A program made the translations under genes and the position numbers. The notes beneath the pieces were generated by a model. The model ran no database searches. It was not told where the DNA came from and saw only the letters and a list, made by a program, of their open reading frames with translations. A DNA stretch of 64,000 nt from positions 1 through 64,000 of the IMG/VR virus record IMGVR_UViG_3300020577_014401. The stretch is one strand, 5' to 3'. The DNA comes from a virus (taxonomy: Duplodnaviria > Caudoviricetes). Below are positions 1,893 through 60,627 of the stretch, piece after piece; positions within the stretch are counted from its first letter, which is position 1, and each line of letters begins with the position of its first letter.

Positions 1893-1981
1893 AGCCATCG
1901 CACAATCGTCTGGCACACCAACTTCCGATTCGGATAGACTCTGGCTGGTTCTCCGCGAATATCCGGCTATCGGGACCGTCC

Positions 1982-4477
1982 ATGCGACCCAACGACCTGC
2001 CCCAGGATGGTGATCTGTTGCTGTGCTTCGCGCTCGGCGCCCGGGCGGGCAAGTATTTCCCGAAACAGGCTAATGTCCCGCCGGAGTTCAACGAGATCCC
2101 GTCTGGGTTGACTCACGTACCCGACAACCATCGGGCGATCGAGATCACCCCTGGCCTGATTCCTGCTTCGATGGGCGGCATGTTCGGAGCGGCCGCGGCC
2201 AGTCCGCTGATCCCGATCGCTGCTTTGGGAGGTGCCGCGTTCGGGGCGCTGAAGTCGAGGCCCGGTCAAGCCGTGAATGACATTGCGAAAGGCACGATGA
2301 CCGGCCTGACCGGCGGGCTCGGGGGCGCCGCTGGCGCCGCTTTGGGGGGCGCTATCGGATCGCAATACCAGGGCGACCCGGTTACCGGCCTTCTCGTCGG
2401 TAGCGGAGTCGGCGGCCTGGGGGGGCTCATCGGCGGGCTGCATCTCGGCAATCGGGTCCTCAAAACTCCGGCTGATCGCGAGCAAGCGGTCACCAAGCAA
2501 TCCGACTTCCTCAGCTCCGCCCAGGACGGTCTCAACCAAGCTGGTGACTGGCTCAACCAGAACGCCATCCAACCAGGGGTCGCGGCGTTCAACAAGCACG
2601 TCACCGACCCGATTTCGAACCGCGCCAGGACGAACCTGGGGATCCCGGAAGGCGGTTTCCAGGGGTTCATGGAACGCAACCCGTGGGCGATCGCACCGAT
2701 CATCGGCGGTGGCATCGGCGCCGGGGTCGGTCTGCTCGGGAGCGGGGGCAAGAAACGCAAGGACGTTCTCGGTTCGGTGCTTCGCGGCGGTCTCTTGGGT
2801 GCCGGTGCCGGCGGTCTCGCGTGGGGTGCCCGCGAGCTCTTCGGCGGCAACCAGGCGCAACCACCCGCGCAGGAGACTCAGAAAACCATCCCGGAAGCCC
2901 CGAAGAACGTCACGCCCGGCGCCGATCTCCGTGCCGAGAAGCCTGAACTGAATCTTTTGCAACGAAAGAAGACAGTGACGGACTCGTGGGGCAACTCCGG
3001 ACAAACCAATGCGTTCGTGGACGGTCCGCTTCAGGCCGCCAAGAACCAGTACGCCACGTTGCGCATGGGCGGCAACATCGATGCCGCCAGTGGCAAGGCT
3101 TACGACGACGCGTACCGGGCGGTCACGAACGCCGAGGCCAATCAGGACTGGGAGGCGGCGGCGCAATACGCCAAGAAACTTCAGGAACTGAACGATTTTC
3201 ACAGCAACTTGATCGGTAACAACCTGAAAGCCCCGAACGTCCAAGACGTGGTTTCCGGGCTTGGTTCCGGACTCGTACCTGGCTTCGGCGGGATCGCTGG
3301 GGCGGCCGGTCAACTAGGCTCGGCAGCCAGGCCCGGTCCGGCCCCGTCGAATTTCAGTTTGTTCGGCCGACCCATTACTCGGGGGGCTGACGGACTTACG
3401 CCGTCTGCTCCTGATGCTCAACCCCAAAGCATGGTTGACTTCGCCAAGCAACTCCGTCCGGAAGTCGAGGCCAACAGCCAGGCGGTCAACGAAGCCGACC
3501 CGAGTGCCATGGGGCAAGTCCCGTGGTACCGATCGGCGGCCGGGAGGAGGTCGCTTGAGACGGCCGGTCTCGGCGGGCTGCTTGGCCGCGGCAGCCAGTT
3601 GGCCGCGAACGCCACTGGTACCCGCATCGGGCCCGACGCCCGGTACTACAACCAACTCGAGAAGGGTGTCACTTCTCCGGCTCCGACCCGTGGTCTGCTC
3701 GGTCAACCGCTCCGCCTTATGGACGCCGCCACAAGGATCGGGCCGGAACAGGCCAACCAAAAGGCGTTGACCCAGATCGCGTCGGTGCTGAACAGCGGGG
3801 CGACCGGCAAGTTTGTGACCCCCGATGAAGTCGGCCAAGCGCTTCGCGATCCGAACCACGCACTTCGACCCAGCGTGGTCGGTGCGATCCGAGGTTTGGG
3901 GGGTCGGACGGGCGAAGGCGTCCTCCCGGTTGCGGCTCCCGATCGATTCGATCTCCGCCCGGCCGCTGACAATCCCCTTTTCCTGAAGAGTCTCCAGGAG
4001 CGCCTGGTGAAGCCGCCGTCGAAAGCCATGGCGCAACAGCAAATCGATGATCTTCGTGAGCAGCTTCGGGGGAACATTCCGATGAAACCGGAAACGATGA
4101 AGTTGCTCACTGCTCCCGACGGACCGTTCGGAAGGGCGGCGCACAACGCCAAACTCCTGCCGCCGAGCGGCAAGTTTGGTCCGTCGTTGCCGATCCACGG
4201 CCCGACTCATGCGACTACGCCGATGGAGCTCTTGAAGAAGAACACCCTCGGCCGGCTCAAGTCCCCGACCGCCTTGGGTATGCTCGCCGGCGGTCTGACG
4301 CCGAGCATCCAAGCCTACGCCAGTGGTGAACGGACCAAGAACACGCTCAGCGAACTCTTGAGCGGCTCTGCCCCCGGCGCACACGACCTGGGCGACCCGA
4401 AAGTTCAGCAACGGCTCCTCGAATGGTTCCGTCAGCGCCAACCGAGCGCCGATGAACGTGAAGCTCAGTTGCGATAA
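1982..4477 (+). CDS. glycine-zipper-rich putative internal virion/ejection protein (831 aa)
   Basis: Several GxxxG hydrophobic segments (GLTGGLGGAAGAALGG, IIGGGIGAGVGLLG); directly upstream of the prohead protease. Confidence 0.6.
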   Translation: MRPNDLPQDGDLLLCFALGARAGKYFPKQANVPPEFNEIPSGLTHVPDNHRAIEITPGLIPASMGGMFGAAAASPLIPIAALGGAAFGALKSRPGQAVNDIAKGTMTGLTGGLGGAAGAALGGAIGSQYQGDPVTGLLVGSGVGGLGGLIGGLHLGNRVLKTPADREQAVTKQSDFLSSAQDGLNQAGDWLNQNAIQPGVAAFNKHVTDPISNRARTNLGIPEGGFQGFMERNPWAIAPIIGGGIGAGVGLLGSGGKKRKDVLGSVLRGGLLGAGAGGLAWGARELFGGNQAQPPAQETQKTIPEAPKNVTPGADLRAEKPELNLLQRKKTVTDSWGNSGQTNAFVDGPLQAAKNQYATLRMGGNIDAASGKAYDDAYRAVTNAEANQDWEAAAQYAKKLQELNDFHSNLIGNNLKAPNVQDVVSGLGSGLVPGFGGIAGAAGQLGSAARPGPAPSNFSLFGRPITRGADGLTPSAPDAQPQSMVDFAKQLRPEVEANSQAVNEADPSAMGQVPWYRSAAGRRSLETAGLGGLLGRGSQLAANATGTRIGPDARYYNQLEKGVTSPAPTRGLLGQPLRLMDAATRIGPEQANQKALTQIASVLNSGATGKFVTPDEVGQALRDPNHALRPSVVGAIRGLGGRTGEGVLPVAAPDRFDLRPAADNPLFLKSLQERLVKPPSKAMAQQQIDDLREQLRGNIPMKPETMKLLTAPDGPFGRAAHNAKLLPPSGKFGPSLPIHGPTHATTPMELLKKNTLGRLKSPTALGMLAGGLTPSIQAYASGERTKNTLSELLSGSAPGAHDLGDPKVQQRLLEWFRQRQPSADEREAQLR

Positions 4478-4491
4478 CCCCGAGGCTGATC

Positions 4492-7400
4492 GTGTCGATG
4501 ACCAAGAACATCCCGCCCGGCGCCTGGCCGGGCTTGTCCGATCAGATCCAGCTCGAGGCGGTGAAGATCGCCTCGTCCGGTCTGCGGGGCAACGACTTCA
4601 CCGAGTTCGCGAAGCGGGCCAGCCACCCGCTCGCGACGTGGGTGCGGGGCTACAAGCCGCTGCCCGGCGAGTACGTCGCTCACCTGCTCGCGCTTGGATC
4701 AACCGAGAAAGTCGGGCAAAACCGCAACGCGGACGCTTACGGCGAGGCGATGCTCGAACGCGACCACCCGACGTTCGAGAAGCTCGCTCGTGTCTACCTG
4801 AACCACTGCTTCGCGCCCGACACCGAGGTCGTTCTCGGCGACCGTCGCCGCGTCCGCATCGACACGATTTCGAGTGGCGATCAGGTTATGACACCTGACG
4901 GCCCGAAACGTGTCAGCGACGTCTACGTCAACCGTTATTGCGGCACCATTCTTCATTTCAAATTGGAGGGTCTTCCGAAACGGCTGACTGCGACTCCGAA
5001 CCACCCGATTTTCGCCATTCGGAGAGAGTCGCTGTTCACGAAGCATGGGTACTGCCGGCTCAACACCGGAACTAGCGGCTCGAGGAGTCGCGACTGGGAT
5101 CGGCCGGTGGAGGGCGACTACGTTCAAGCTGGCGAACTGCTCCCCGGAGACTATGTCGCCATCCCGCTGCCGAAACTCGGCGGCGAACCCATCGACCGTA
5201 ACTTCGCTGAATTGGTCGGCTATGTCGCTGCTGATGGCAGCATCCACGACAACGGCGCCGTTCAATTCACTCTCAAGCGATCCCGCAAGATCTCCGCCAT
5301 CGAGAGCCTGGCTGACCGGCTCGGGGTCGCGCTGAGTAAGCGTCGCCGCAGTGATGATGGATGCTGGGCCATCAGTTTTTCGAACCAAGAGCTCGCCACC
5401 AAGCTCAGAAAGTTCATCACTGGAACCGACACTGAAAAGACACTCACGGAGGAAGTGTTCAAACTCGATGCCGATTCGATCCAGAGGATCATTGGCGCCT
5501 TCATTGATGGGGACGGGAACTTTTCAAAGAACAATCGCGGCCTTATCCGCATTCGATCGTCCAGCCCGGCAATGCGTTCGTCGCTGTGTGACTGCATTCG
5601 CGCGCTCGGAGTTCCGTGCTCGGTCCAGATCGATTCCCCCCGCCACACGATGCGAGGTCTGGGGAAGTACCGGAACAGGGTGTACCAGACCAACGAAAGC
5701 GGCTGCGTCAACATCTCCAACCGGTACGCGTCGATCGTTGCGAAATACGCGACGACCAAGGTCGACTACCCGGAGAAAATGAAAACGATGCCGACGATCT
5801 GGGGTAATTTCCAGATCGTCAAAGTGACTTCTCGCGACGAATCCGATTACGACGGTATGGTCTACAATCTGAAAGTTCCCGGTCCGGAGAGCTATTTGGC
5901 CGGGGAAATTCTGGTTCACAACTGTAACCGCGACCCCAAGCAGAGCTACGGGGTCGTCAAGAAGTCGCATTTCGACAAGCAGTTGGGTCGTGTCGAACTC
6001 ATCATCGCTCTCAACGCCACCAAGGAAGCCGCCGACCGGAACGAAGGCCTCGTCGCCGAACGGACGTTGAACAAGCTCGCGAACAACATCGACGTCGCGG
6101 TCAGCCAATCCTGCTTCGTGCCCGGATCGAGGGTGTGGACCGACACCTATCGGTTCATGCCGATCGAAAACGTGGCGATCGGGCAGAAGCTCACCAGCCA
6201 CCACGGTAACGTCGGGACGGTCAACGCACTGATTCCCAAACACCATGACGGCGAAGTCGTCCGTTTTCGCGCTGTCGGTTTGCCGGACCCGGTCGTCTGC
6301 ACGCCCGATCATAAGATCTGGACCAGGCCCACGGCTAAGGGTAAGACCCCCAAATGCCCGGTCTGTGGCGGGCAATTCAAGTCGCTCAACGCGCATCTCT
6401 GGCAGAAGAAGGACCCCCAACATCAGCGGGCACTCCGTGACTACGGGCGTGCCGCTGAAGGTTGGACGCGAGCTGAAGATCTGGTTGTCGGTGACTTTGT
6501 GCGGACGCCCTTCGATACGCAGATCGAAGAGCCCGGTGACGCTGTTTACGCGGAGCTCCTCGGCTATTACCTCTCTGAAGGATGTACGTGGGAATACTCC
6601 CGTTTCGCTAAAGGCGGTCGGGATTGTTACAAGGGCGTCGATTTCATCTTCTCCCGCAGCGAAGACGACACATTCGTGGCGAGAACGGTCGAACTCTGCA
6701 AGCAGCTCGGCTACACCAAGATCTCGTTGCGTCGGCAACAATCCAGGCCGAATACCACGACAGTCCGGGTCTCGAGCGCTGAACTGGCCCGTCGGCTGCT
6801 GGCTGACGGTGGTCGATATTCCTACGGCAAGGAGATCGCCGACCGGATCATGCGATGGTCGCCCGAAGTGCAACTCAAGATCGTCGCCCGTTTCATGGAT
6901 GGAGACGGCAACTGGAACCCGATCAACGAAATTTTGTCCGGTACTACCGTCTCCGAGCGGCTCGCCTACCAACTGGCGGCGATCTGCTGGAGGAACAATA
7001 TCCCGGCCAATATCACCACCGTCCGCAAACCGAAGGGCGGCCGCCGGCAGAGTTACACAATCGCAATCTCACAGCGGTACGCCTCGGCAGTCGGCTCCGA
7101 CAAGGTGCCCGCCGACCATACGCCGATCACGCACAGCCCGACTGTTCTCGGGCACTTGCGATTTCAACAAGCCGGGGGCGTTTCCGTCCGGGCTACAGCC
7201 GCTCTGCAGACGTACATCGAGAGCGGGTTTGTTTACCGAAGGATTCGCAAGATCTCTCGCGAGGAATACTGCGGGCCGGTCTACGATCTTTCCGTCCCTG
7301 GCGACACCTCATACACGGTCTCTGGAATCGGGGTGTCCAACTGCTTCGTGCCCGGTGACCATTGCACGAGCTGCGATCACTTCGCTCGCAACCGTTCCGA

Positions 7401-8253
7401 GTATTGCGGCCCGCAGAACTGCAAGTACGGCGGTTGCCGGGACAACCTGGGACGCGTCTTCGACGACGGGTTCCAGCTCGGTGTCGACAACCGCGACTGC
7501 AAGTTCTTCGACATCTCCGACGTCAGTGACACCCGTGGCGCCGACCGGACCGCGTTCATCACCGGCAAGGTCGCTGAAGTCGAACGGACCATCGGCGGCG
7601 CCCAGCTTGCCGAGATGCTCGGCATCGTCGCCCCCGAGCACTTGCTCGACCCGAGAACCATCGCTGCGGCGTCGTCGCTTCGCAAGCTCGCCGCCATGGG
7701 CGCGCCCCAGCACGCCCCTGCGTCGTCGTGGGACGAGTGCCTGGCGGTCCGCGGGCGGAGGAACAACGGGTTCTGCAAAGCGGCGTCGTTCCCGAACGAC
7801 GACCACGGGCGCCACACCATGCTTTCGGAGTTGGCCGCCGACGGTGTGATCCTGCCGCCGTCGCGGTGGCTGGCCGCGATCACGGGCGGCCCCGTCGACA
7901 AGTGCGCGTCCGTCTTCGCCCGCGGAGTTTCGCCGCAGCGGTTGCTCGACCGCAGTGACCTCCACGACAAACTCGCCGAAGCGCAGTACGCCGACGATAG
8001 CCGGCTATCGTCGCCGGGGTCGTACGCGTGGATGTCGCCGACGCGGGCGGCTCACGGTGAAGAAAGCGCTTCGGCGGCGATCACCGGACCGGCGAAGATC
8101 GCTTCCACCCAGGCCCCGGCCAACGTGGTCGAGGAAGCTGAACTCCGCTACCTCGCCTACCAGGCCGGCGTGCTCGCCAAGCACGCTCATCGCCCCGAGT
8201 ACGGTGCGTTGCTCGCCGAGTGCGCGAGGCACAACACCGGCCTCACGGTCTGA
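4492..8253 (+). CDS. prohead maturation protease (HK97-gp4/assemblin-like, Cys-rich Zn loop) with two inteins
   Basis: Spliced extein reads VYLNH-CNRDPKQSYG...VAVSQS-CFVPGDHCTSC...FFDISDV...ADRTA, matching the NH / SxxC-CxxC / FFxxSxV pattern of large-myovirus head proteases; upstream of scaffold and capsid. Confidence 0.8.
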   Translation: MSMTKNIPPGAWPGLSDQIQLEAVKIASSGLRGNDFTEFAKRASHPLATWVRGYKPLPGEYVAHLLALGSTEKVGQNRNADAYGEAMLERDHPTFEKLARVYLNHCFAPDTEVVLGDRRRVRIDTISSGDQVMTPDGPKRVSDVYVNRYCGTILHFKLEGLPKRLTATPNHPIFAIRRESLFTKHGYCRLNTGTSGSRSRDWDRPVEGDYVQAGELLPGDYVAIPLPKLGGEPIDRNFAELVGYVAADGSIHDNGAVQFTLKRSRKISAIESLADRLGVALSKRRRSDDGCWAISFSNQELATKLRKFITGTDTEKTLTEEVFKLDADSIQRIIGAFIDGDGNFSKNNRGLIRIRSSSPAMRSSLCDCIRALGVPCSVQIDSPRHTMRGLGKYRNRVYQTNESGCVNISNRYASIVAKYATTKVDYPEKMKTMPTIWGNFQIVKVTSRDESDYDGMVYNLKVPGPESYLAGEILVHNCNRDPKQSYGVVKKSHFDKQLGRVELIIALNATKEAADRNEGLVAERTLNKLANNIDVAVSQSCFVPGSRVWTDTYRFMPIENVAIGQKLTSHHGNVGTVNALIPKHHDGEVVRFRAVGLPDPVVCTPDHKIWTRPTAKGKTPKCPVCGGQFKSLNAHLWQKKDPQHQRALRDYGRAAEGWTRAEDLVVGDFVRTPFDTQIEEPGDAVYAELLGYYLSEGCTWEYSRFAKGGRDCYKGVDFIFSRSEDDTFVARTVELCKQLGYTKISLRRQQSRPNTTTVRVSSAELARRLLADGGRYSYGKEIADRIMRWSPEVQLKIVARFMDGDGNWNPINEILSGTTVSERLAYQLAAICWRNNIPANITTVRKPKGGRRQSYTIAISQRYASAVGSDKVPADHTPITHSPTVLGHLRFQQAGGVSVRATAALQTYIESGFVYRRIRKISREEYCGPVYDLSVPGDTSYTVSGIGVSNCFVPGDHCTSCDHFARNRSEYCGPQNCKYGGCRDNLGRVFDDGFQLGVDNRDCKFFDISDVSDTRGADRTAFITGKVAEVERTIGGAQLAEMLGIVAPEHLLDPRTIAAASSLRKLAAMGAPQHAPASSWDECLAVRGRRNNGFCKAASFPNDDHGRHTMLSELAADGVILPPSRWLAAITGGPVDKCASVFARGVSPQRLLDRSDLHDKLAEAQYADDSRLSSPGSYAWMSPTRAAHGEESASAAITGPAKIASTQAPANVVEEAELRYLAYQAGVLAKHAHRPEYGALLAECARHNTGLTV
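4807..5922 (+). mobile_element. intein 1 with LAGLIDADG homing endonuclease (372 aa)
   Basis: Starts CFAPDT; block B TPNHPIF; LVGYVAADG and IGAFIDGDG motifs; ends VYNLKV...ILVHN followed by Cys. Confidence 0.92.
6112..7341 (+). mobile_element. intein 2 with LAGLIDADG endonuclease and C2H2-like Zn finger insert (410 aa)
   Basis: Starts CFVPGS; TPDHKIW; LLGYYLSEG and RFMDGDG motifs; ends VYDLSV...GIGVSN followed by Cys. Confidence 0.9.
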
Positions 8254-19777: not shown

Positions 19778-19794
19778 CCGATATCCGGATATCC

Positions 19795-25579: not shown

Positions 25580-28500
25580 GTGTTCAACGACGGCCGTTCG
25601 CTCGCCAACTCGCGGCGGCTCGACATCCTCTTCGCCGGGCTTTCGGGCCCGGCGTCCGCTTCCGGCAACCCCTATCTGGCCTCTTGGCTCAACGTCCTTT
25701 CCCCCGACCGTACGACGCCGCAGATCGAATCCGGCGTCATTGTCGACGTCCTGCCGGGCGGCCGTGCTTACCGGGTCTCGGCCGGCGCTCGATCGTTTCT
25801 GTGGTGCTCTGACGGCGGGACGACGGCGGGTTACGGTAAGATCGGTGCTCGCCCACTGACCACGTACGCCATCGGAACTCCGGTCTGGTTCATCCGCCAC
25901 CCTCAGACTCCGAACATCGGCACGATCATCGCCGCGGAGCCGCCTTGGATGCTCGGGTCGCCGGAGCAATGGCCGGCCGACGGCATCTGGCCGTTCATCC
26001 GATCGGGTCAGAAGTCCGAGACTTCGCACATTTGGCCGGTTTGGGAGGACAGCCGTGTCGCCGATCTCGGTGATGTGAAACTGAAGAACCTGGACATCGT
26101 CGACTTCTCGGCCGGGCGGCCGATCGACGCCACCGGGGCCGGGGAATGGGGCGCCATGACCGAGACCGGTCTTGGCGTCTTCATGGACTCGTTCCAGGTC
26201 TACCTCCGTGTCGATGAAACGACCGGTGTGTTCGGCTCTTACCAAGACCAGATGCTGTTGGTGGCCGGTCACAACTTCCAGTTCATGTCGTCCCACACCG
26301 AGCACGAGGAGTTCGAGGACGAAGGCGAACTGGCCGGTTTCACACGAACGTGTGTCTACCCGTGGGAGGCGTACGGCGTTTGGAGGCACAACCAAGTCAC
26401 CCCCGGCTGGGCGATGTCGGAGATCCCCCGGTACGGCTGGGCGTCCGGACAGGGGACGATCCCAAACGACCCGATCGACGTTCAAGCAGCGTCCGGGTAC
26501 GCCGTTCGCGAACCGGAAGGCGCCAAAGCCCTCCCGGCCGCGAGGATCTACGACTGGAGCGGGTATCTCGGCCAAGGCGGCAAGAAGCAGATCGCCGCCC
26601 CTGTCCAATTGTCATGGGCCTACCCGGACGTCCCGAGCGACGCCCGTTTGTCACAAGTGACAGCGGACACTGACCCGGAAAACCGGGTTCCCGGCGGCCG
26701 ATTGTTGTTCGAAGGGGCCGCCGGTCAGCTCACCAAAGTCGGGGTCGTCAAGGACGGCGCCTGGGACGCGGCCAACAAGGTCTACACTCCGGCCGACGGA
26801 GCCATCGCTGTCACGGCCGGGATGTGGGTGTCCCTTTACACCACCGGGCAGCCGCACTCGTCCAACGGCTGGATCGGGCAGGTCAAGGAGTCGTCGTCCG
26901 GGGCGACCATCGTATTCGAAGATGACGTGTTCCAGGGTGACATTCCTCCGTCAGCCGCCAGTGGCATCGCAGCGATCGTGTGGGCGGCGACGATCCAATA
27001 TCTGGTCCCGGTCAACGAGCGTGGCGACTCCGCCGACAAGCGGGTTCAGCCCGGGGTTTTCGAGGAGCAGAAGACGCTCGGTGGCCGGTTCGCAATGCGA
27101 GCCGCCGGCGGCATCTTCTTTTCAAAGCGCTCGGTCATTCCGAGTCCGAAACCCAATCGGAAGGCCGCGGACCCCGCAGGCGACAACCCGCAGAACTACG
27201 ATGCCAGCGGTCTCAACGCTGCCGGAGCCGTTACCCACAATGTCACTGGCGACTTGGCGTTCCCTGGCGGCCCCGCCCACCGGATGGCGGCCCTGCCGGA
27301 CACGCTCGCCTACTTGTTCAACTGGGAGGGTCTTCACCCGTTCGTGTACCACGATCGTGACTGGACGGTCGCCGAAGAGAGCGACGCCGGCAGCACCCTG
27401 GTGAACCAAAAGGCGCCAAGCTACGCGGACATCGAGATCGAGGATTACCTGGCGGCACCGTCGCCCAACTACCTCGACATCGACCACCGCTACGGACTGG
27501 TCCCGGTCTACGAGAACCAGTCTGATTTCGCCATGTTCGAAGACGGATCCATCGTCCTCTCGGACGGGTGGGGCTCGGAAATCCGGATGGGCGGCGGCAA
27601 CATCGAGTTCCACTGCGTCGGTGATATCCGGATATTCAACGGCCGTGACGTGATCGTCTGGTCCGGCCACGACATTGCGCTCAAGGCCCAGAATTCGATG
27701 GACCTGGTCGCCGAACGAGCCGACTTCCGGACCCACGCCGGTCGAAACAGCCAGCACTTGGCCGGCAACCGCGGCTGCGGCGGCTTCTTGTTCCAGACCA
27801 ACGCCGTGTGCCCCAGCTACTCGTTCTGCGGCAAACTGGGCGAAGACGTCACCGGGTCCGGTTTTGTCGTGCTCACCCCGAATTCCCAGGTCTGGATGCA
27901 CGGCCAGGACGTGGTCCTTTCACTCGAGCCGACTCACCCGGACGGGCGTATCGTTCTCGCCGCCGGCCAAGACCGGGAAATCCATTCGACAGCCAAGAGG
28001 TTCATCACCCGCCTTCCGGAGGGCGGGACGGTGGCGCATCTGTTCGGCACCGCCTACGCCAACGAGTTCGGCGGAGAGTACACGATCATCGGCGGCAAAC
28101 TTTATGTGACCAACGGGGTGCGGGCGACCACCGTGGCCGCGGACGCGACGGCGGCCCAACGAATCACGTACGTTTCGACCGTCTACGCCGCCGATTTCGA
28201 CGCCACGCACTTCAACCCGGACGGGTCGGAATGTGCCGAGTATTCCGCTCGCACTGCGAAGCAGTATCTGTCGAGCAAGTTCACCTACTGGAAGTCCAAG
28301 TGGAAGGTCATCGCCGAAGGCGATGACCAGGAACTGCAACTGTGGGACGAGGAGCCGGTTGTCGGGTTGCGATCGTACGAAGTGACCCGACCTCACCCCG
28401 GCGAGCGGTGGGAGGCGGTCGGCGGCCAGAAGAGCCATTCCTGGTTGTTGTCCGACCCGACGGACAATTGGTTGGCCAAGTCGAGGCTCACCTACCGAAC

Positions 28501-35960: not shown

Positions 35961-36776
35961 ATGCCATCGGCGTCCTCGACCACCTACCCGTTCAACCCCT
36001 CCGGGACGACTCCGGCCGCCCCCGAGGTCGATCCGTGGAAATCTCCGGGTCAGGGGCAGACCCTGCTGGAGGACAAGTACGCCGAGCCGTATCAGGCCTA
36101 CAAACAGAACCCGAGCCTGGAAACGTCCGGTCCGCTCCTGAAGGCCATCGAACCCATCATCAACGAATCGTTGAGGTCGTACGCCGGTACCGAAGCGCAG
36201 ACCGGGACCGCGCGGGCGAGGGCCAAGGTGCTCGCCCTCGATGCGATCAACAGGTACGATCCTCAACGAGCCAAGCTGAGGACGCACCTCCTCAGCCATC
36301 TTCGAGGGCTCCGCCGCGTCACGGAGCGATCGACGGCCGGAGTGTACGTCCCCGAGCAGTGGAGGATCGATTCGCGAAGGGTCGATGCCGCTCTCAACGA
36401 TGCGAGAGACGAGCTGGGCAGGGAGCCGTCCGACGCCGAGTTGGCCGAACGGGCCGGCATCTCGATCGAACGGATTCGGAAGGCCAGGCAGGTGCCCGGC
36501 GTGTTGTCCGGCAGCCAGTTCGAAGGCGCGATCGAAATGTCGAACCCGAGTGAGAAAGCTTGGAACTCGTGGGTGGAAGGCATCTATCACGACTCCGACC
36601 CCAAGGACCAGGTGATCCTCGAATACTCGTTGGGCTTGCACGGGAAGCCGGTGCTTCAGGCCAACGAAGTGGCCGCCATGCTGAAGTTGTCGCCCGGGGC
36701 GGTTTCGCAACGAAAAGCCAGACTGCAGAACGCTCTGGATGAGTTCGAGCTGTTCATGAGGGGTCGAGGCCGATGA
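35961..36776 (+). CDS. sigma-70 family RNA polymerase sigma factor (FliA/WhiG-like)
   Basis: AINRYDPQRAKLRTH (region 2), LGREPSDAELAE (region 3), EVAAMLKLSPGAVSQRK (region 4). Confidence 0.85.
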   Translation: MPSASSTTYPFNPSGTTPAAPEVDPWKSPGQGQTLLEDKYAEPYQAYKQNPSLETSGPLLKAIEPIINESLRSYAGTEAQTGTARARAKVLALDAINRYDPQRAKLRTHLLSHLRGLRRVTERSTAGVYVPEQWRIDSRRVDAALNDARDELGREPSDAELAERAGISIERIRKARQVPGVLSGSQFEGAIEMSNPSEKAWNSWVEGIYHDSDPKDQVILEYSLGLHGKPVLQANEVAAMLKLSPGAVSQRKARLQNALDEFELFMRGRGR

Positions 36777-37787: not shown

Positions 37788-39412
37788 TGCCGACCACCGC
37801 CGCCGATCTCGCCGGAGCGACCGACAGCCAGATCCTGGCTGCGCGGAACGCCCTCATCGCGTACCTCCAGGAACGGTGGCCGAACCTCGCCATTCGCGGT
37901 GGCCCGCTCGCCGATCTTGTCCTCGGACCATCCGGGAACGCGTTGGCGGCGGTCGATGTGATCGCCGCCGAAGCGGCGCTGTCGTACAACCCCGAAGAAG
38001 CGTTGGCCCAGGGGGGCTACAACTCGACCATCCTCGATTCCGTTCTCGCCGGGCGAGGTGTGCAGAGAACCCAAGCGGCGGCCGCTTCCGGGTCGGCGGG
38101 CATCCGCCTCACGAGTTCGACAACCCGGTCGTTCCCGGCCGGGTTCAAGTTCCAGACCGCCGACGGAGTCGAGTTCGCAACCAGTCAGTCGACCCGCCTC
38201 CTCGCACCCGGCTCGACCGCCGTGCTCGCCAACGATTACGTCTTGGTGGCGGACGCTGAAGGCGAGACGTTTCTGGCGGTGGTGGCGATCAGCTGCCGGA
38301 CGACCGGGTTGTCCGGGAATCGGGCCGCCGGGACGACGCTTGAAGCTGTCGACACGTTCGATTCGCTTGATTCCGCGTGGATCGCTGTCGACACGGCTGG
38401 CGGGTTGGACGAGGAGACCGACGCTGAGCTGCTCGCAAGACTGCCGGCCGCCTCGGCGCCCAGGACCGCGGCGTCGATCGCCGGTGCCGAAGGTCTGATC
38501 CGAGATGCGATCCCGGCCGCCTCCACTCTGTCATCGATCAAGTTCGGTGACCCGGAGATGGTCCGGGGGCGATCCGTTCTGTCGACTCAAACCCCCGGCC
38601 GATTCGACGTCCGGTTCCGCACCGAGTCGTCGCCGAGCCGGGAAGGCACGACAGTCGAAGCCGAGCTCATCAGCATCGACCCGGAAGACATCGGAACTTG
38701 GAGGTTCACGCTCACTCGGGATATCTCTCCGGGGCGATTCCTCGTTGAAAAGATCCTGAGAACCGACCAGGGTGTCACTGAAGCCGGCATCAACCCGACA
38801 GTGACCCCGGGGTTCGACCTGTCCGACATCGACGATCCGCCGGACATCCGGTCGGTCGCCGACGCGGCGCTCACGCGGTACGCCACCGCCCTTGTGACAT
38901 TTGCGGATCCTTCGACCTCCACGACCGGTTTGGAAGTGGGGGACATGAAGGATTACCAGGTGGTTTGCCGCCTGATCGCCGGGGTTGAAGACGGCCAGGC
39001 CGCGGTCGATGTCGCCGATGCGAAGGCCGCCGGCGGCGACTGCCTGGTCCGGACCGCGGTGCCGTGTCTGGTGTCGGTGACCGCCGCCGCCACACCGGCG
39101 GCGGGCGTGTCCGTCACCGTGGCGGAAGTGCGAGCGGCCGTGGCTCAGGCGATCAACTCGGCGGCGAAGATCGATAGCCGGCTATTGGCTTCGCAAGTCG
39201 CAGCCGAAGCGGCCGTGATCCTTCCGAAGGGAACAGCGTTGCTGCTTTCCAATTGGTCGGGTACCATCTATCCCAACGATGGCGATGATCCGGTGATGGC
39301 GACGGCCGACCAACTCGGACTGACGGTCGCCGACAACCTGCCAAGGAACATCAGCGCCGCCACGGTCGCTTACTACTGCGACCCGGAATCCGTCACTGCA
39401 TCCGTCTCGTGA
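37787..39412 (+). CDS. baseplate J-like protein
   Basis: RTQAAAASG...FPAGFKFQTADGVEF...GGLDEETDAELLAR. Confidence 0.85.
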   Translation: MPTTAADLAGATDSQILAARNALIAYLQERWPNLAIRGGPLADLVLGPSGNALAAVDVIAAEAALSYNPEEALAQGGYNSTILDSVLAGRGVQRTQAAAASGSAGIRLTSSTTRSFPAGFKFQTADGVEFATSQSTRLLAPGSTAVLANDYVLVADAEGETFLAVVAISCRTTGLSGNRAAGTTLEAVDTFDSLDSAWIAVDTAGGLDEETDAELLARLPAASAPRTAASIAGAEGLIRDAIPAASTLSSIKFGDPEMVRGRSVLSTQTPGRFDVRFRTESSPSREGTTVEAELISIDPEDIGTWRFTLTRDISPGRFLVEKILRTDQGVTEAGINPTVTPGFDLSDIDDPPDIRSVADAALTRYATALVTFADPSTSTTGLEVGDMKDYQVVCRLIAGVEDGQAAVDVADAKAAGGDCLVRTAVPCLVSVTAAATPAAGVSVTVAEVRAAVAQAINSAAKIDSRLLASQVAAEAAVILPKGTALLLSNWSGTIYPNDGDDPVMATADQLGLTVADNLPRNISAATVAYYCDPESVTASVS

Positions 39413-39431: not shown

Positions 39432-40274
39432 ATGATTCGCGCTTTCTCTTGGATCTTGTTCGCGGCGCTGGCCATCGCCAGTTGCCAGGTGCAATCCGCC
39501 GATCCGTTGCCGACGCCCAAGTCGACGGTCAAGTTCCCGGTTCTCCCGGTGAAGCCGGTCGACGACAAGAAGGCCGAGCCGACGACTCCGCCGGCCAATG
39601 ACATCCCGGTTCTCGACGAGGGCGTCTACTACGTCATCCACGACGACGCCCCGTTCATCACGTACGCATCGCCGGCGAATTTGGTCCACATCACCAAGAC
39701 GACCGGGCCGGTCAAACTGCTCGGCAAGTTCATCGACGGCACCGGCGACTTCGAAGAGAAGGAGTACAAGTCGAAGAACGTCACAATCATCCGTGCCAAG
39801 GCTCAAGGCCGGGTCGAGCTGATCGTCAACGCCGTCGGAGCTGTCGACGAGTCGACCGCCCAGCGGAAGTTGATCGACGTGATCTCTGGTCAAGGGCCGA
39901 TCCCGCCGCCCAAGCCGGTGGTGCCGGTGACGCCGACGGAAGTGAAGTCGTTCCGGGTGATCTTCGTGATCGAATCGGGCTCGACTCCGACCGCCGCCCA
40001 GCTCGGCGTGTCCGACGCGAAGCTGGTTCGCGACTACCTGACTGCGAAATGCACCAAGGAGGGCGAATGGCCGGGCTGGCGCCGGTACGACCCGGACGCC
40101 GATGTGACCAACGAGCAGCCGACGATGAAGGCGTTGTGGGAGGCTGTGAAGCCGAAGATCACTTCGACCCCTTGCCTGGTTGTCGAGACCAACGGGAAAG
40201 TCGACATTCTTCCATACCCGAAAAACTCAGTCGAGAGTCTGTCGTTGCTCAAGAAATATGCGGAGGGCAAATGA
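39432..40274 (+). CDS. secreted/lipoprotein with Pro linker and thioredoxin-like C-terminal domain
   Basis: Signal peptide (LAIASC), GPIPPPKP linker, FRVIFVIES...TPCLVV. Confidence 0.6.
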   Translation: MIRAFSWILFAALAIASCQVQSADPLPTPKSTVKFPVLPVKPVDDKKAEPTTPPANDIPVLDEGVYYVIHDDAPFITYASPANLVHITKTTGPVKLLGKFIDGTGDFEEKEYKSKNVTIIRAKAQGRVELIVNAVGAVDESTAQRKLIDVISGQGPIPPPKPVVPVTPTEVKSFRVIFVIESGSTPTAAQLGVSDAKLVRDYLTAKCTKEGEWPGWRRYDPDADVTNEQPTMKALWEAVKPKITSTPCLVVETNGKVDILPYPKNSVESLSLLKKYAEGK

Positions 40275-40837
40275 CTTCGGTGATCCAGTCCAACCAAAAC
40301 GATCATCTTCTGCGTCGTCTGTGGCGGCAAATCGCCATTGATGGCCAAAGTGGCTGTTGGGTGTGGACTGGAACAATATCCACAGACCACATGCACTACG
40401 GCCAGGTCAGTGTCAATAACCGAGCACAGAAAGTTCATCGGTTGATGTACACACTGATGGTCGGCCCCATCCCGACCGGGCTCTGTGTTCTTCACAAATG
40501 CGACAACCCGCCATGCTGCAATCCTGGTCATTTGTTTACTGGGACGAACGAAGACAACACAAATGATCGCCACAGAAAAGGCAGATCTGCCCGAGGATTG
40601 GCGAGTGGTCGGCATACAAAACCGGAGCGGACAGCGAGAGGGAGTAGGAACGGTCGTTCGAAGCTGACAGAATCGAAAGTGGCGACGATCCGCGATCGCT
40701 ACGCGACCGGTAACGTATTCCTGAAAACTCTCGCCAAAGAGTACAATGTTTCGACTCAAGTTGTGTGGAGGATTGTTCGGGGTATCAGTTGGAAAACCTT
40801 CGAAGACAAGACTTCACCCACTAAAAGGACTCAGTGA
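40271..40837 (+). CDS. HNH homing endonuclease
   Basis: CWVWTG...KVHRL...VLHKCDNPPCCNPGHLFTGTNEDNTND plus C-terminal HTH; AT-richer. Confidence 0.9.
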   Translation: MTSVIQSNQNDHLLRRLWRQIAIDGQSGCWVWTGTISTDHMHYGQVSVNNRAQKVHRLMYTLMVGPIPTGLCVLHKCDNPPCCNPGHLFTGTNEDNTNDRHRKGRSARGLASGRHTKPERTARGSRNGRSKLTESKVATIRDRYATGNVFLKTLAKEYNVSTQVVWRIVRGISWKTFEDKTSPTKRTQ

Positions 40838-42885: not shown

Positions 42886-44916
42886 ATGAGCAGCCCGACG
42901 CCCAAACAGTTGATCGGAGGATACTGGGGCGTCAATCCGTCGCCGGTCGTTGACGACTACGCCGGCGTCTGCTCGGCGGTGTCCGGCCCTGGCTCCGGTC
43001 TCTACGCCGGCTCCCCGCTCGCCTGTTGGGCCATTCAAAGAACCCAACGCGTGTTCCCCGGCCCGAATGGCTCCGTGGCGTACGGGTACCCGGCCCCGGC
43101 TTCCGATCCTGTTTGGATTTCACTGACACAGTCGTCCGGGCCGGTCCTGACCAAAGGCCCGGATTTCATCATCGAAGACGGGTATGTCTGGTTCACACGC
43201 GATCCGTTTTTCGATCGCCCAGGCCGGATGGAATTCTCGGCCGCCAACGGCTTCCAACCGGTGCTGGACATCTGGTACGGGGCCGAACCGACTTCGGTAC
43301 AAGAAACGCCTCCGCTCGACGCAACCGCCTACGCGCTCGCCAAGTCGATCGCCACGTCCACCGATTCGCCGTGCTCCGGACCGGTGCGTGAAACCGTGAC
43401 CGACATCTGGCAGGCGGCCGACGGGTCCTGGAGGGTCGTCACGAACGTCGCCGTCTACCGCCTCGAATCCGGGAACGATCCGGTCGTGGTTGCCGGGGAC
43501 GTCCTGGCTCCTGGTTCGCCGATCGGCCAGGCTTGGTCGTTGGAGAAGCTCGATTTCCGGACAGTGTCGGATTACATCACACTGCCGGCGTCCTTCATGC
43601 AAGGCGTCACGGAAGGCAACGTCACCTGGTACCGGGAGAATTGTCCGATCCTGGTCGACGACTACGCCGGCCGGACGCGTGTCCGATTCGACCTCGGCGT
43701 CGAGTCGATCGCCGACTTCGACGCCATCTGGGAAGCGTCGATGGTCAACGGCGTCGAGAACGGCCGCACATTGGCCCAAGCTCTCGACACAAGGCCGTCT
43801 GGAACGGGCGACCCGGGGGCGGCCAACCTGCCTCGGGTCGTCAGTCCGATGCGGTTGCTGGCCAAGGAGTTGCTGGCCGGATGCGCCTATCGACTGATCG
43901 TCAAACCGGACAAGTTCGGACCTTCGGGTCTTTCGGTCGATCAAGTGGCCGCGGCGGCGAGAACCGCTGCCGGCTCATATCCGGCTATCTTTGTGTGGGA
44001 AAACGAGGAACCGGTGTACGACCCGGTCCAGCCGTCGACGACGACTACGACCACGCACCCTCCCACGACGACGACAACCACGTATCCGCCTACGACAACC
44101 ACAACCACGTACCCGCCCACGACGACCACGACCACCATTCCGCCCACGACAACCACCACAACGGTTCCTGGCGGCGACTGGTACTGCATCAATGTCACGT
44201 CGTTCTCGTCGCCGGGCGGCCCCGGCTACAACTGCTTCAATGGCAGTGCTGGAACCGGGCCGATGTGTGTCCAGCAAAGCAGCGTGGTCGGAGGCGGGTT
44301 CCCGTGCGGACCGTCGGGGACGACGAATTGCCATCAGGGGTGTGGCGGCGGGGTTTCGACATACTACGACGTCACTTCCGGACCGCACGCCGATTACGCC
44401 GCGTGCTCGGTATCGTGCGGCGGCGTCACAACGACGACCAACACTACGATCGCTCCGGTGCCGCTGCAGTACGATTGTTCGCTCGGTTCTTGCGTCGGCA
44501 TCCTGATCGGCGACTACCCGACATTGGCCGAGTGTGAAGCGGCTTGTGGCGGGTACACTCCCGGAGACTGTTGCACGCTTGGAGCCCTGTACCACCCTGA
44601 TCTGAAACTGACCATCGCTGACGGTCCGAACGCGGGCGATCACACTGTCACTTGGGCCGCCGGTTGCTACCCTGATGGCTGCTGGGTGGCGTTGACCCCG
44701 AGCCTCGGCGCGGAGATCTTGTTCGGCTGTGGAAAAGTCGAAACCGGGACCTGGAGGGTGAAAATCACCCCGACGGTCCACCCGGCCATCGGCTGGAGCG
44801 ACTCTGCCAAGGCCGCCACGCAAACCTGCATGCCGTCGTTCCTCGCCATGTGGGACGACGCGGACGTGCTGGCGTTCTTCAGTACGACCCAGCCGATTCG
44901 GTTGACCGTGGCTTGA
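42886..44916 (+). CDS. baseplate/tail protein fused to a mucin-like Thr-rich linker and Cys-rich domains
   Basis: N-terminal ~380 aa resemble a structural/wedge domain; (T6xPP) repeats; Cys-rich C-terminal half. Confidence 0.65.
   Translation: MSSPTPKQLIGGYWGVNPSPVVDDYAGVCSAVSGPGSGLYAGSPLACWAIQRTQRVFPGPNGSVAYGYPAPASDPVWISLTQSSGPVLTKGPDFIIEDGYVWFTRDPFFDRPGRMEFSAANGFQPVLDIWYGAEPTSVQETPPLDATAYALAKSIATSTDSPCSGPVRETVTDIWQAADGSWRVVTNVAVYRLESGNDPVVVAGDVLAPGSPIGQAWSLEKLDFRTVSDYITLPASFMQGVTEGNVTWYRENCPILVDDYAGRTRVRFDLGVESIADFDAIWEASMVNGVENGRTLAQALDTRPSGTGDPGAANLPRVVSPMRLLAKELLAGCAYRLIVKPDKFGPSGLSVDQVAAAARTAAGSYPAIFVWENEEPVYDPVQPSTTTTTTHPPTTTTTTYPPTTTTTTYPPTTTTTTIPPTTTTTTVPGGDWYCINVTSFSSPGGPGYNCFNGSAGTGPMCVQQSSVVGGGFPCGPSGTTNCHQGCGGGVSTYYDVTSGPHADYAACSVSCGGVTTTTNTTIAPVPLQYDCSLGSCVGILIGDYPTLAECEAACGGYTPGDCCTLGALYHPDLKLTIADGPNAGDHTVTWAAGCYPDGCWVALTPSLGAEILFGCGKVETGTWRVKITPTVHPAIGWSDSAKAATQTCMPSFLAMWDDADVLAFFSTTQPIRLTVA
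44035..44169 (+). repeat. 5 x TTTTTTxP(P/G) 27-bp coding repeats
   Basis: Direct reading; Thr codons are diversified. Confidence 0.9.
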
Positions 44917-50820: not shown

Positions 50821-51735
50821 ATGGAATACAAACTCGTCGTGAGACGCAAAGGAGTCGGAGACACAGTGGCGATCTCGCCCTTGGTGCGGGATCTTCACCG
50901 TTTCAGACCGGATATCCGGATATCCGTCGAAGGCACGTTGGCTTCGGAAATTTTCAAACACGACCCGAGAGTCTCGACCTGGTCCGGAAACGGACGGGAA
51001 GTTGTGATCGACTACAAGCCGACTCACGATCGGGCTCGGTTCGACAAATCCGCCAGGTACCTGCTCGCCGGACTGGAAGACTTTAACCTCCAGACCGGCC
51101 TCAGTGTCCCGGCCGGCGATCCTAGACCCGAGCTCGTCCTGCTCGACGAGGAACGACCGGAACCGTCGGCCTATCCTTACATCGTCCTGGCTTCCGGTGT
51201 GAAACTGGACATGCCGCTGAAGCGGTACCCGCATAACCGTTGGGCCGAACTGGTGAGGCTCGGTTCGGCTCTGGGTTGGAAATTCCGACAGGTCGGCCAA
51301 ATCCACGACGGCAGGTTGCCGCATATCCAGGAAGCGATTCCTGGCGCCGACAACCTTCTCGGCAAGACATCGATCAGGCAGTTGTTCCGCGTGATCTCCG
51401 GGGCGGCCGCCGTGGTCTGCCACGTCTCGCTGCCGATGTTGATCGCGTCGGCCTTCCGTGTCCCGTGCATCGTTCTCGGGGGCGGGCGGGAGAACCCTTG
51501 GCTGTTCGCCGACATGGGAGTCGACTATCTTCACACCATCGGCGAGCTCGGGTGTTGTCAGCTGCACGGCTGCCATGCTTGTTTCGCCAAACCGGCCCAC
51601 GACGGAGCCTATCCTCCCGGCAGTCTTTGCGCCGATCCGGTGGAATGCGAGAACGGGTCCGCGGTCGGGCGGTGCATGACGCTCATTGAGCCGTCCGAGA
51701 TCGTCGATCGTCTGAGCGTACTCGTCCGACCCTAA
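50821..51735 (+). CDS. GT9/ADP-heptosyltransferase-like glycosyltransferase
   Basis: GVGDTV...KRYP...LLGKTSIRQL...SLPMLIASAFRVPCIVLGG. Confidence 0.85.
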   Translation: MEYKLVVRRKGVGDTVAISPLVRDLHRFRPDIRISVEGTLASEIFKHDPRVSTWSGNGREVVIDYKPTHDRARFDKSARYLLAGLEDFNLQTGLSVPAGDPRPELVLLDEERPEPSAYPYIVLASGVKLDMPLKRYPHNRWAELVRLGSALGWKFRQVGQIHDGRLPHIQEAIPGADNLLGKTSIRQLFRVISGAAAVVCHVSLPMLIASAFRVPCIVLGGGRENPWLFADMGVDYLHTIGELGCCQLHGCHACFAKPAHDGAYPPGSLCADPVECENGSAVGRCMTLIEPSEIVDRLSVLVRP

Positions 51736-54480: not shown

Positions 54481-54522
54481 AGCGGCTCGCAAAATTCAGT
54501 CGTCGTGGGTATCATCAACTCC

Positions 54523-54795: not shown

Positions 54796-54818
54796 ACTGG
54801 AGAGAGGATTTCCGCATC

Positions 54819-55695: not shown

Positions 55696-56342
55696 CTCTC
55701 GCCATCGACCGACATTGGGAAACCGACGGCCAGGGTCGACTGCTCTGCATGAACTGGCTGCCGCAGACCTGGCACCAAGAAATCGTCCAAGACACCGGCT
55801 CCGAACCGCACCCGCGATGCCTCGACCGGCTCGGTGCGGCTCTGGCTTTGTGCAACAACCCGGACGAGTATTACCACTCCGTGCCGGGGTTTCGGGACAT
55901 CTGTTCCGGCCTGGCGTCGGATTGGTTCGACTCCCGAGTCGATCAGCACCTGACGACCGACGAGTTGCTGCGCGGGCTGGTCGAAGCGCACATGATCCAT
56001 CCTCCGCACGAGACGGAGAAGTTCTCCCCGCAGGTCGTTCGCTACGTCAACATGGTGGCCCGTCACGACGGTTTCTCGAAACTGCCTGAACCGATCAAAT
56101 CGTTCGGAATCCCCGCCGACCCCGGTGTCGACTGGGGTAGTGATCTGTCCGGCGACGAGGAACTCTTCGACCTGGCCGCCGGTGCGGAGGAAGACCGCCA
56201 GCAAGACCTGATCGATTCGCTGAGTTCGTTCCTGCTCGACCTGGCCGACCGGCTCGGCAGGCTGCCTTTGAAACACATCAAGAACGCCAAATCCGTGGCG
56301 GATGACATCCTCAAGAGGGTGCCACGAATTCCGGCCGAATAG
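55635..56342 (+). CDS. hypothetical protein
   Basis: 235-aa ORF with typical codon usage. Confidence 0.6.
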   Translation: MDELAGRVWGDPESPAVCLLALAIDRHWETDGQGRLLCMNWLPQTWHQEIVQDTGSEPHPRCLDRLGAALALCNNPDEYYHSVPGFRDICSGLASDWFDSRVDQHLTTDELLRGLVEAHMIHPPHETEKFSPQVVRYVNMVARHDGFSKLPEPIKSFGIPADPGVDWGSDLSGDEELFDLAAGAEEDRQQDLIDSLSSFLLDLADRLGRLPLKHIKNAKSVADDILKRVPRIPAE

Positions 56343-56376
56343 CCGGATATCGCCGCGGGGAAAGGATTTCAATCCA

Positions 56377-57941: not shown

Positions 57942-57945
57942 AGCG

Positions 57946-59034: not shown

Positions 59035-60587
59035 CGTTTTCCCTTCATGAACGTCATCCCAACGTCGCTATCGGCGCCGCCGGGGTGTTCGGATTGTTGA
59101 ATCTTCCGCCGTTTCCCGACCAGGCGGCCTGTCCGTCGTGCCTGGGGCCTTGCAAGATCGACCCGGCCCAGGAAGGCGGGGCCTGGTTGTCATGCCGAAA
59201 GCCGTCCTGTTCCTGGGAAGGTGACCACTTCGAATACTTCCAAGCCAGGACCAAGATCTCGGAGATTTCGATGGCGATCAACTCGATCGCCAAGAAAGAC
59301 GTCCGGGTCGCGCCAGGCGCCGATAACGCGGCTGTGGTGCGATCGTACCAGAAGAGGCTGCGCACCCGGAAGAGCTTCCGTGAACTGTCTTTGAGAATGA
59401 ACGCCAGAGCTTCAACCGGGGTAGGCGAGGCGCACGCCGTTCTCGGGCTCGCGGACCAACCGCATTCTCCGCCGTACTGGTGGTCGATTTCGGTCGGTGA
59501 ACTGGACGACATCCTCGGCCCGGATGTGTTTCCAGCCACTTCCGCCGACCGCCGCTTGGGACTGCCGGCGCGACACGACCCGGCGTCGGTGGCCGTGGTC
59601 GTGCCGACGTACGACCAAATCGGACGAGTCTCGGGGCTCTGGGCCGCGGCCGGGTGCGCGGAACGGGGCGGCCGGGTCGACGTGGATTGGAGGTGGAGAG
59701 GGCTCCACGACTTCCCTGGCGGCGTCGGGCTGCTCCACTCGGCTTCCAGCCAGGTGCCGGCCTGGGGCGGCTGTGGGTTGATCTGGAGCGATCCTGGGCC
59801 GGCTCTGAGACTGCACGCCGATCGCCGCAGGCACGCGTCAGACAGGCCCCCGGCGGTCATCCTGCCGCCGCACCATGCTTTGGATATCGCCTCCATCTCC
59901 AGGACGTTGCCGGCTCGGAAATGGGTCGCCCTGGTCGACAAGTCCATCGACGCCCATTCCGCTGCGGTGTTCAAGCTGTGCTCATCAGTTTCAGCGATGG
60001 TCCGTCTTCTTCCGGACGACAAGCCTAAGCTGTGGACCACGACTTCCGCCGGTGTGGAGCTGGTGGCGAGGGCCGCATCATGGCAGGATCGCATTGGCGA
60101 CCTGATTTCCGGTTTCCAGCCTGGACACCGGTTGGCGTCTTTCTTGGTGGAGCTGGGGTGGAACTCCGATCTCGAGGCCAGGTGTTTCCCGAGGTGGACG
60201 GCGGAGACGCGAGCCAAGGTGGCCGACTCCTTGGGCGCTACGGAGAGGGTGAGGTCGGTGCCGATTCGGAAAGGTCTGACGATCGTTGAAGCCGACGGTC
60301 TCTGGGTGTGGGAGGAGAAGAACATCGTCGTGTCGGATGTCATCCTCGACCAAGTACGATCGTACCTCGACGCGAACGGAGCCAAGCGGCACAAAGGGCT
60401 GATCCTGCACAAGGGATTAGTCCACCAGTTCGACACGAATCGGTTTCGCGAGGACCCGTCCGCGGCCGTCGAGACGGCGCTTCTCGAGGCTGGCGTCGCC
60501 GACCCGCCGTCGTTCCACCCGTGTCTGTCCGGCTTGGTGGCCGACATTGTGATGCACTTCAACAAGATCCGGAACTCGGCCGAGTGA
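59025..60587 (+). CDS. primase-like protein with N-terminal Zn finger
   Basis: CPSC...CRKPSC; VVVPTYDQIGRVSGL resembles the DnaG catalytic-domain entry; no clear TOPRIM motif. Confidence 0.4.
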   Translation: MSSSFSLHERHPNVAIGAAGVFGLLNLPPFPDQAACPSCLGPCKIDPAQEGGAWLSCRKPSCSWEGDHFEYFQARTKISEISMAINSIAKKDVRVAPGADNAAVVRSYQKRLRTRKSFRELSLRMNARASTGVGEAHAVLGLADQPHSPPYWWSISVGELDDILGPDVFPATSADRRLGLPARHDPASVAVVVPTYDQIGRVSGLWAAAGCAERGGRVDVDWRWRGLHDFPGGVGLLHSASSQVPAWGGCGLIWSDPGPALRLHADRRRHASDRPPAVILPPHHALDIASISRTLPARKWVALVDKSIDAHSAAVFKLCSSVSAMVRLLPDDKPKLWTTTSAGVELVARAASWQDRIGDLISGFQPGHRLASFLVELGWNSDLEARCFPRWTAETRAKVADSLGATERVRSVPIRKGLTIVEADGLWVWEEKNIVVSDVILDQVRSYLDANGAKRHKGLILHKGLVHQFDTNRFREDPSAAVETALLEAGVADPPSFHPCLSGLVADIVMHFNKIRNSAE

Positions 60588-60627
60588 GCCGATATCCGGC
60601 TATCTGCTTTCCTGAAAGGAGGAGACC

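Follow-up and report, generated by a model that had tools for sequence, protein, structure and literature searches.

An evenly spaced, clade-conserved array of dyad-symmetric 12-bp sites along the genome of an uncultured large phage

Results

Genome context and count of the palindrome

The window analysed here, a 64,000-nucleotide (nt) stretch, comprises bases 1-64000 of the Caudoviricetes virus record IMGVR_UViG_3300020577_014401 (109,992 bp in all; CheckV completeness 56%, GC 62%), and contains nine of the 15 copies found in the whole record of a dispersed 12-bp palindrome, ATAKCCGGMTAT (ATA[T/G]CCGG[A/C]TAT; Table 1). Approximately 95% of genes lie on the + strand according to the gene calls of this analysis, with the large terminase, of lambda-GpA type, being encoded on the minus strand. 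The record carries a replication block (HldE, SbcCD, two helicases, a DnaB-like helicase, a primase and a UDG-PolA fusion), glycosyltransferases, methyltransferases including a D12-class DNA adenine methyltransferase, and a FliA/sigma-28-like sigma factor. Most of the proteins scanned (about 75 of some 100) had no Pfam or PHROGs match. The helicase and the product of gene 25 had no match in 50,697 phage records, the terminase reached no more than 26% identity, and PolA used as a direct protein query against IMG/VR found nothing. The lineage is one of uncultured large phages with no cultured relative and a nearly unannotatable proteome.

Table 1 Positions of the palindrome copies in the window and of neighbouring features (aa, amino acids; ORF, open reading frame; HTH, helix-turn-helix; CRISPR, clustered regularly interspaced short palindromic repeats)
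Feature	Position	Strand	Sequence	Context
Site 1	1959..1970		ATATCCGGCTAT	Intergenic, upstream of the 819-aa gene 3
Site 2	7997..8008		ATAGCCGGCTAT	Core of a 22-bp palindrome; in gene 4 (4498-8253), 245 nt before the stop, codon phase 2
Site 3	19781..19792		ATATCCGGATAT	Intergenic, stop at 19777 on one side and ATG at 19795 on the other
Site 4	27624..27635		ATATCCGGATAT	Middle of gene 25 (1119 aa), codon phase 2 (D-I-R-I)
Site 5	39174..39185		ATAGCCGGCTAT	In gene 35, codon phase 2
Site 6	43977..43988		ATATCCGGCTAT	In gene 41 at aa 364, codon phase 3
Site 7	50912..50923		ATATCCGGATAT	46 nt into gene 46, GT9 glycosyltransferase
Site 8	56339..56350		ATAGCCGGATAT	Its TAG is the gene 51 stop; gene 52 starts 26 nt on; junction kept in the relative
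Site 9	60592..60603		ATATCCGGCTAT	Gene 55 stop 4 nt before, gene 56 start 24 nt after; junction kept in the relative
Gene 32, FliA/sigma-28-like sigma factor	35961..36776	+		Context only; possible reader if the sites were promoters
Two small ORFs (82 and 85 aa)	1296..1856	+		Weak HTH-like signals; directly upstream of site 1
CRISPR-type array	1-1250		GTGACAAGGCCGTGCAGGGCCTGAAAGAACTGCAAC	At least 17 copies of a 36-nt repeat with unique spacers of ~35 nt; contig begins within a repeat
Mini-array	64097-64190 (record)		CCCGTGCAGGGGCTGTTYRAACTGCAAC	Two diverged copies of the same CRISPR repeat family, ~30 nt apart

The nine window copies listed in an earlier note on this sequence were all recovered with exact coordinates and sequences, and none was generated in 100 dinucleotide shuffles. 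Across the whole record, 15 copies were observed compared with 0.001-0.02 expected from Markov backgrounds of orders 1-5, in agreement with the earlier rough estimate of ~0.006 per window. The motif is sharply bounded: allowing two mismatches added a single, unrelated match, relaxing any one position pair added at most one, and half-site 8-mers outside the full sites were not enriched (4 seen versus approximately 7 expected, by our own base-composition estimate). In the literature, the string TATCCGGATA turned up in nothing but primers and constructs.

Anatomy of the site

The copy at 7997 extends to a perfect 22-bp palindrome (cgacgATAGCCGGCTATcgtcg), as had been noted previously. Among the 30 half-sites, three flanking positions are biased alike on both strands (G at -1 in 22/30, C at -3 in 17/30 and G at -4 in 15/30), the flanks being otherwise unrelated between copies, and the full site is an 18-20-bp dyad, GCnG-ATAKCC/GGMTAT-CnGC (the slash marks the axis). 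Each of the 30 half-sites has either T (18) or G (12) at position 4 or at its mirror, position 9, and the combinations at the two positions vary independently (T..A in 5 sites, G..C in 2, T..C in 6 and G..A in 2). There is no selection for a hairpin (of the kind in N4-type promoters), cruciform or RNA stem because folding would leave a mismatch in 8 of the 15 sites, and Rfam had no match in the window. Independent half-sites about one helical turn apart, together with the symmetric flanks, argue instead for a dimeric protein reading duplex DNA at each dyad. A conserved peptide was likewise ruled out, as the eight coding copies use all three codon phases (D-I/S-R-I/L, I-S-G-Y and S-Y-P-A-I).

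Spacing and placement at gene junctions

The gaps between successive copies range from 4,253 to 11,870 bp, with a mean of 7.7 kb and a coefficient of variation (CV) of 0.34 over the 15 copies. When 15 points were placed at random 200,000 times, a CV this low arose at a frequency of 2.5e-5 and a minimum gap this large at 1e-5; the spacing is far more even than chance.

Eight of the 15 copies lie at most 80 nt upstream of a + strand start, a zone that covers 7.5% of genome positions (P = 4e-6), and seven are mostly non-coding compared with 4.6% of the genome. Copies at junctions are typically wedged between the upstream stop codon and the next ribosome-binding site, 16-31 nt ahead of the start; at site 9, for example, the Shine-Dalgarno sequence AAAGGAGG comes next. 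The stop codon of the upstream gene is supplied by the motif itself (as ATAG, ATAA or TGA-ATA) at 56339, 74035 and 85905, and also in the related contigs L037, L009 and L010. The previously reported split of the window copies into four at gene boundaries and five within coding sequences holds with our own gene calls, with the copy at 56339 overlapping the upstream stop codon. Site 1 falls at about +12 to +24 of a predicted sigma-70-like promoter (TGGCAC-N18-TAGACT, -10 element at 1935-1940), which would be a classical operator position; it is also the only site near an intrinsic terminator, 74 nt past it.

Conservation and turnover in relatives

The relatives are syntenic contigs in public assemblies, reached through homologues of the DnaB-like helicase; among the related contigs are the Logan contigs SRR12486993_797, SRR32380195_5549, SRR26192786_1646, SRR21686404_4089 and SRR33452760_782. 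The closest relative, with ~75% protein identity to the present record (G000), was tiled over about 70 kb. Eight consecutive G000 sites (39174, 50912, 56339, 60592, 65517, 74035, 85905 and 92985) have homologous counterparts there, five at junctions and three in coding sequence, the latter at identical codons. The ten fixed bases are identical in 80 of 80 comparisons over the eight pairs, and the ungapped flanks are 46% identical. The eight differences among the pairs are confined to positions 4 and 9, and two alter an amino acid: at site 7 a T to G change at position 4 of the relative replaces Ile by Ser, and site 5, which reads ATAACCGGCTAT over the same codons, differs solely at the degenerate position 4 (Ser to Asn). 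The sites, coding copies included, are kept at the DNA level in relatives, a check that had been proposed with the earlier observation.

Sites are also lost and gained. In gene 41, the G000 site at residue 364 (phase 3) and the site of the relative at residue 187 (phase 1) are each missing from the other genome, pointing to site turnover with a move of ~0.5 kb within the gene. The G000 site at 101709 had no counterpart in the stretch of the relative that was examined. The more distant G001 has two sites in 93 kb, of which the one in the GT9 gene (ATACCCGGGTAT) is 6 nt out of register with that of G000; G002 and G003 have none. More distant relatives bear the variants ATAACCGGTTAT or ATATCCGGATAT, and such variants reach down to 47% helicase identity. 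L042 and L044 carry ATAGCCGGCTAT at the helicase/primase or primase/polymerase junction, L010 has six ATATCCGGATAT-type sites in 21.7 kb, L009 has ATAACCGG(T/A)TAT, and L043 has TGATAACCGGTTATCA three times. The 14-mer GATATCCGGATATC was found in 68 other IMG/VR contigs, where 67 of the fetched stretches contained one copy of the relaxed motif and one contained two, and the five of these records that were checked whole had one copy each. Single copies in other contigs indicate that the array is a property of this clade. Exchange of cassettes at the sites was rejected as an explanation, as homology between G000 and its relative does not systematically break there. The array of dyad-symmetric sites is real, under strong selection, conserved across the clade and evenly tiled.

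Search for a cognate protein

The earlier note had proposed a ParB-like partition, silencing or organisation system, possibly of a phage-plasmid. No match to ParB_N (PF02195) was obtained at E≤1 in the 110-kb record, or, at E≤0.1, in the 379 kb of the three related records G001-G003; PF02195 controls were positive in 11 of 14 genomes, and all records are 47-76% complete. A ParA-type AAA_31 ATPase, DUF3102, HTH_3 and a tyrosine integrase were not detectable in the 110-kb record either (KorA was not searched). These absences are not proof because the record is only about 56% complete. With ParB, a ParA-like ATPase, an integrase and DUF3102 not found, the partition or phage-plasmid reading is unsupported, whereas the interpretation as selected, genome-wide palindromes of a protein-binding type stands, as do the analogies to the layout of stoperators and KorB operators. 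For the two small ORFs ahead of site 1, Atlas look-ups yielded no more than weak HTH-like leads, which makes these ORFs weak candidates for the reader of the array.

Discussion

A proposed transcription-gating array

The sites are proposed to form an array at which a symmetric, sequence-specific DNA-binding homodimer docks and gates transcription genome-wide, an interpretation that we favour with a little less than even confidence. From the sequence we infer binding by a dimer, a phage origin of the binder and an effect on transcription. A symmetric dimer would dock at each 18-20-bp dyad, and selection would hold approximately one site per 4-12 kb (about 8 kb) along the one-directional genome, placing it between a stop codon and the next ribosome-binding site where possible and otherwise within coding sequence. 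The bound dimers would act as operators or roadblocks dividing a one-directional gene train of 100-200 kb, which has few terminators, into units of ~8 kb, with a gating logic like that of mycobacteriophage stoperators, P1 C1 operators, phiC31 CIRs (conserved inverted repeats) and KorB OB sites. A genome-wide gate is favoured because it explains both the even spacing with turnover and the preference for junctions between a stop codon and a ribosome-binding site.

Several observations weigh against such a gate. Sites other than site 1 are not beside recognisable promoters or terminators. The distance from motif to next start ranges across relatives from overlap up to 140 nt, and with a start distance this variable the junction preference may mean no more than that 12 fixed bases are cheaper to place outside coding sequence. 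Pfam and PHROGs searches of about 75 of some 100 proteins yielded no binding protein, only the sigma factor and the two weak HTH-like ORFs, and the reader may be host-encoded. There was no sign of lysogeny and no integrase was found, and the known stoperator and C1 systems operate in a lysogenic setting.

Comparison with known dispersed-site systems

Stoperators, the sites of the L5 gp71 repressor in cluster A mycobacteriophages, are 13-bp asymmetric sequences oriented with transcription and associated with an immunity repressor and lysogeny. The present array shares with them many dispersed copies, placement in short intergenic gaps or stop/start overlaps, and positions kept in relatives, and the proposed logic of genome-wide transcription blocking is the same. 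It differs in that its dyads are symmetric and evenly tiled, whereas stoperators are asymmetric, denser and not evenly spaced; sites with one T and one G half show no significant orientation bias (6 versus 2), and neither a repressor nor an integrase was found in this incomplete record (no HTH_3, weak HTH-like ORFs only).

The IncP plasmid RK2 has 12 copies of the 13-bp palindromic KorB OB (TTTAGCSGCTAAA) in 60 kb. Like KorB OB and the ParB-parS and Noc-NBS (Noc-binding site) systems, the array consists of a short perfect palindrome every few kb, with some copies at promoters and others distant, and in those systems the palindrome is read by a dimer able to act at a distance. ParB-family sites are 13-16-bp palindromes in several dispersed copies; here, a symmetrically flanked 12-bp core occurs 15 times. 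Unlike in those systems, the ParB_N CTPase was not detected in the record or in three relatives, there is no ParA, and the element is a phage rather than a plasmid.

The P1 C1 operators and phiC31 CIRs lie at early or lytic gene promoters of temperate phages and have an identified repressor. They resemble the present sites in comprising more than a dozen copies of one operator, the CIRs being intergenic inverted repeats, but here many sites are inside genes and evenly spaced. MatP-matS and SlmA-SBS (SlmA-binding site) are host chromosomal systems with known proteins, in which, as here, a 12-14-bp palindrome read by a dimer occurs in many dispersed copies and its role depends on distribution rather than on neighbouring genes; no homologue of either protein turned up here, where no search was aimed at the MatP or SlmA families. 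Overall, the layout is nearest to that of stoperators and KorB operators, yet the array does not fit the definition of either class.

Alternative explanations

An organiser for which spacing alone is selected may fit the sequence evidence as well as a gate does. It is possible, though rather less likely than gating, that the spacing itself is selected, with a non-ParB phage protein loading or anchoring once per ~8 kb to coat, insulate or topologically partition the genome; a lost site would then be replaced by a new one nearby in any reading frame. If so, the array would be a phage counterpart of the chromosome-organising matS, SBS and NBS arrays, in uncultured large phages that probably infect Planctomycetota.

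Somewhat less likely again are loading or nucleation sites for a spreading, sliding or bridging protein (ParB/KorB/Noc-like, or an analogue of MatP-matS or SlmA-SBS) that would organise, condense, partition or silence the genome, so that the reach of the protein would set the spacing and junctions would merely be cheap locations. The even 4-12 kb spacing is near the spreading distances generally known for ParB and KorB, turnover keeps one site per neighbourhood, some copies lie mid-gene and distant from starts, the distance to the start codon is variable, and the CCGG-centred, AT-armed palindrome resembles the Noc box, a resemblance of sequence only. Such a role is at odds with the failure to find ParB_N, AAA_31 ParA or DUF3102 in the record, or ParB_N in the three relatives; there is no indication of plasmid or temperate maintenance, and the spacing in L010 is tighter and less regular (1.8-6.6 kb).

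A third possibility, which we regard as improbable, is that the sites serve as compact promoters recognised by RNA polymerase with the FliA/sigma-28-like sigma factor of the phage; transcription would begin at the 3′ edge of the motif and, as in T7, would be re-initiated from internal promoters along the gene train. The product of gene 32 is such a factor (Sigma70_r3, 31.8 bits; phrog_351; PDB 6pmi_F, E 2e-5) and is among the most conserved of the wider group, with 41-62% identity in G001-G003. The sigma-28/sigma-D -10 element is GCCGATAA/T and the sigma-28 consensus is GCCGATAT; the half-site with its flank, GCnGATAT, resembles the -10 element and matches GCCGATAT at 6-7 of 8 positions. The ATG overlaps the last two bases of the motif in L010 and L009, as would fit leaderless transcripts, and a distance of 16-31 nt to the start leaves room only for a short leader carrying a Shine-Dalgarno sequence. 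However, the profile of flank and half-site, G(50%) C(57%) n G(73%) ATA K, is the same on both strands and lacks enrichment of C at -2, and the TAAA -35 element occurs in 0 of 30 half-site windows. A symmetric signal would fire both ways, yet 95% of genes lie on one strand, and the downstream half is as strictly kept as the putative -10. In L010 the Shine-Dalgarno sequence lies upstream of the motif, so that the motif would be part of the transcript, and G001-G003, with two sites or none, conserve the sigma factor to the same degree.

Slightly more improbable is a role in DNA processing or marking, either as the target of the D12 methyltransferase or as nickase or nuclease sites that start recombination-dependent replication and are processed by SbcCD. 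The gene for the D12 N6-adenine methyltransferase ends exactly at site 85905, a junction kept in the relative, 13 of the 21 GATATC sequences in the record (the M.EcoRV site) fall in the motif, the phage encodes SbcCD, and sites at which replication or recombination starts might well be evenly spaced. Against this, 12 of the 30 half-sites read GATAGC (ATAGCC) rather than GATATC, and with only 13 GATATC in the 15 sites plus flanks an EcoRV-type target is not present in every site. The methyltransferase has no extra DNA-binding domain, and it looks like a host-mimicking, anti-restriction enzyme because it is closer to Gemmata proteins (52-58% identity) than to the copy of the relative phage (44%). 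Cleavage at a palindrome would produce double-strand breaks in the phage's own genome, and phage nick sites are generally known to be asymmetric. A chance or compositional artefact, a repeated peptide or a mobile-element footprint, in favour of which it can be said only that AT-rich words are rare in this genome, can safely be dismissed given the absence of the motif from shuffles, the Markov expectation of at most 0.02, the three codon phases, the unrelated flanks and the positional conservation.

Significance of the array

A few well-studied temperate phages and plasmids are known to carry dispersed operator arrays, and the same design is now seen in a lineage of large phages that is uncultured, bears a CRISPR array and has no recognisable cognate protein. 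Even spacing that is stable between relatives, with density kept through turnover, is rarely documented for phages, and this evidence points to a function that depends on genome tiling. The ten invariant bases offer a clean bait for a new family of DNA-binding proteins, and the variation at position 4 (T/G here, A or T between lineages) provides a natural test of co-evolution.

Probable host and other features of the genome

The nearest homologues of the D12-class methyltransferase (record 85042-85905) are proteins of Gemmata, including one on the G. obscuriglobus chromosome. This proximity suggests a planctomycete host, probably of the Gemmataceae, and is the first host hint for this phage group; the pattern of similarity, with a more distant copy in the sister phage, also hints at gene exchange between phage and host. 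The hexamer palindromes AACGTT, AGTACT and GTGCAC do not occur in the whole record, compared with 10-14 expected for each, as would fit avoidance of restriction sites of the host.

The scanned proteins included no recognisable cas gene product, and the core of the CRISPR repeat, searched against species genomes, gave only a chance coding match in a Rubrivivax metagenome-assembled genome, indicating no host. The mini-array, which falls directly past the window end, lies in a 222-bp AT-richer gap ahead of the 415-aa gene that precedes hldE. Gene 4 encodes 1251 aa with a Hint/LAGLIDADG intein at about residues 106-479, and its extein had zero Pfam matches. The ORF at 40049-40837 probably represents a mobile gene for a homing endonuclease: its third-position GC content is clearly below that of its neighbours, and it has an HNH_3-like motif (GCWVWTG...) as well as an HTH-like stretch at the C-terminus.

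The word TAGACT occurs six times on the forward and once on the reverse strand, and four copies (1935 and 35948; 100815 and 106198 of the record) have a TGGACA-like hexamer 17-18 nt before them and are likely sigma-70-type promoters. Genes 32 and 97 have their start codon 6-7 nt past TAGACT, suggesting leaderless transcripts. Strong intrinsic terminators at record positions 1890, 89823 and 106164 are directly followed by CTTAGC(C/T), and TTTAGC occurs at the terminator at 109700. In G001, intergenic DNA lying 37-90 nt upstream of genes is enriched in the words GCTAAA and CTAAAC, which may represent a separate promoter class.

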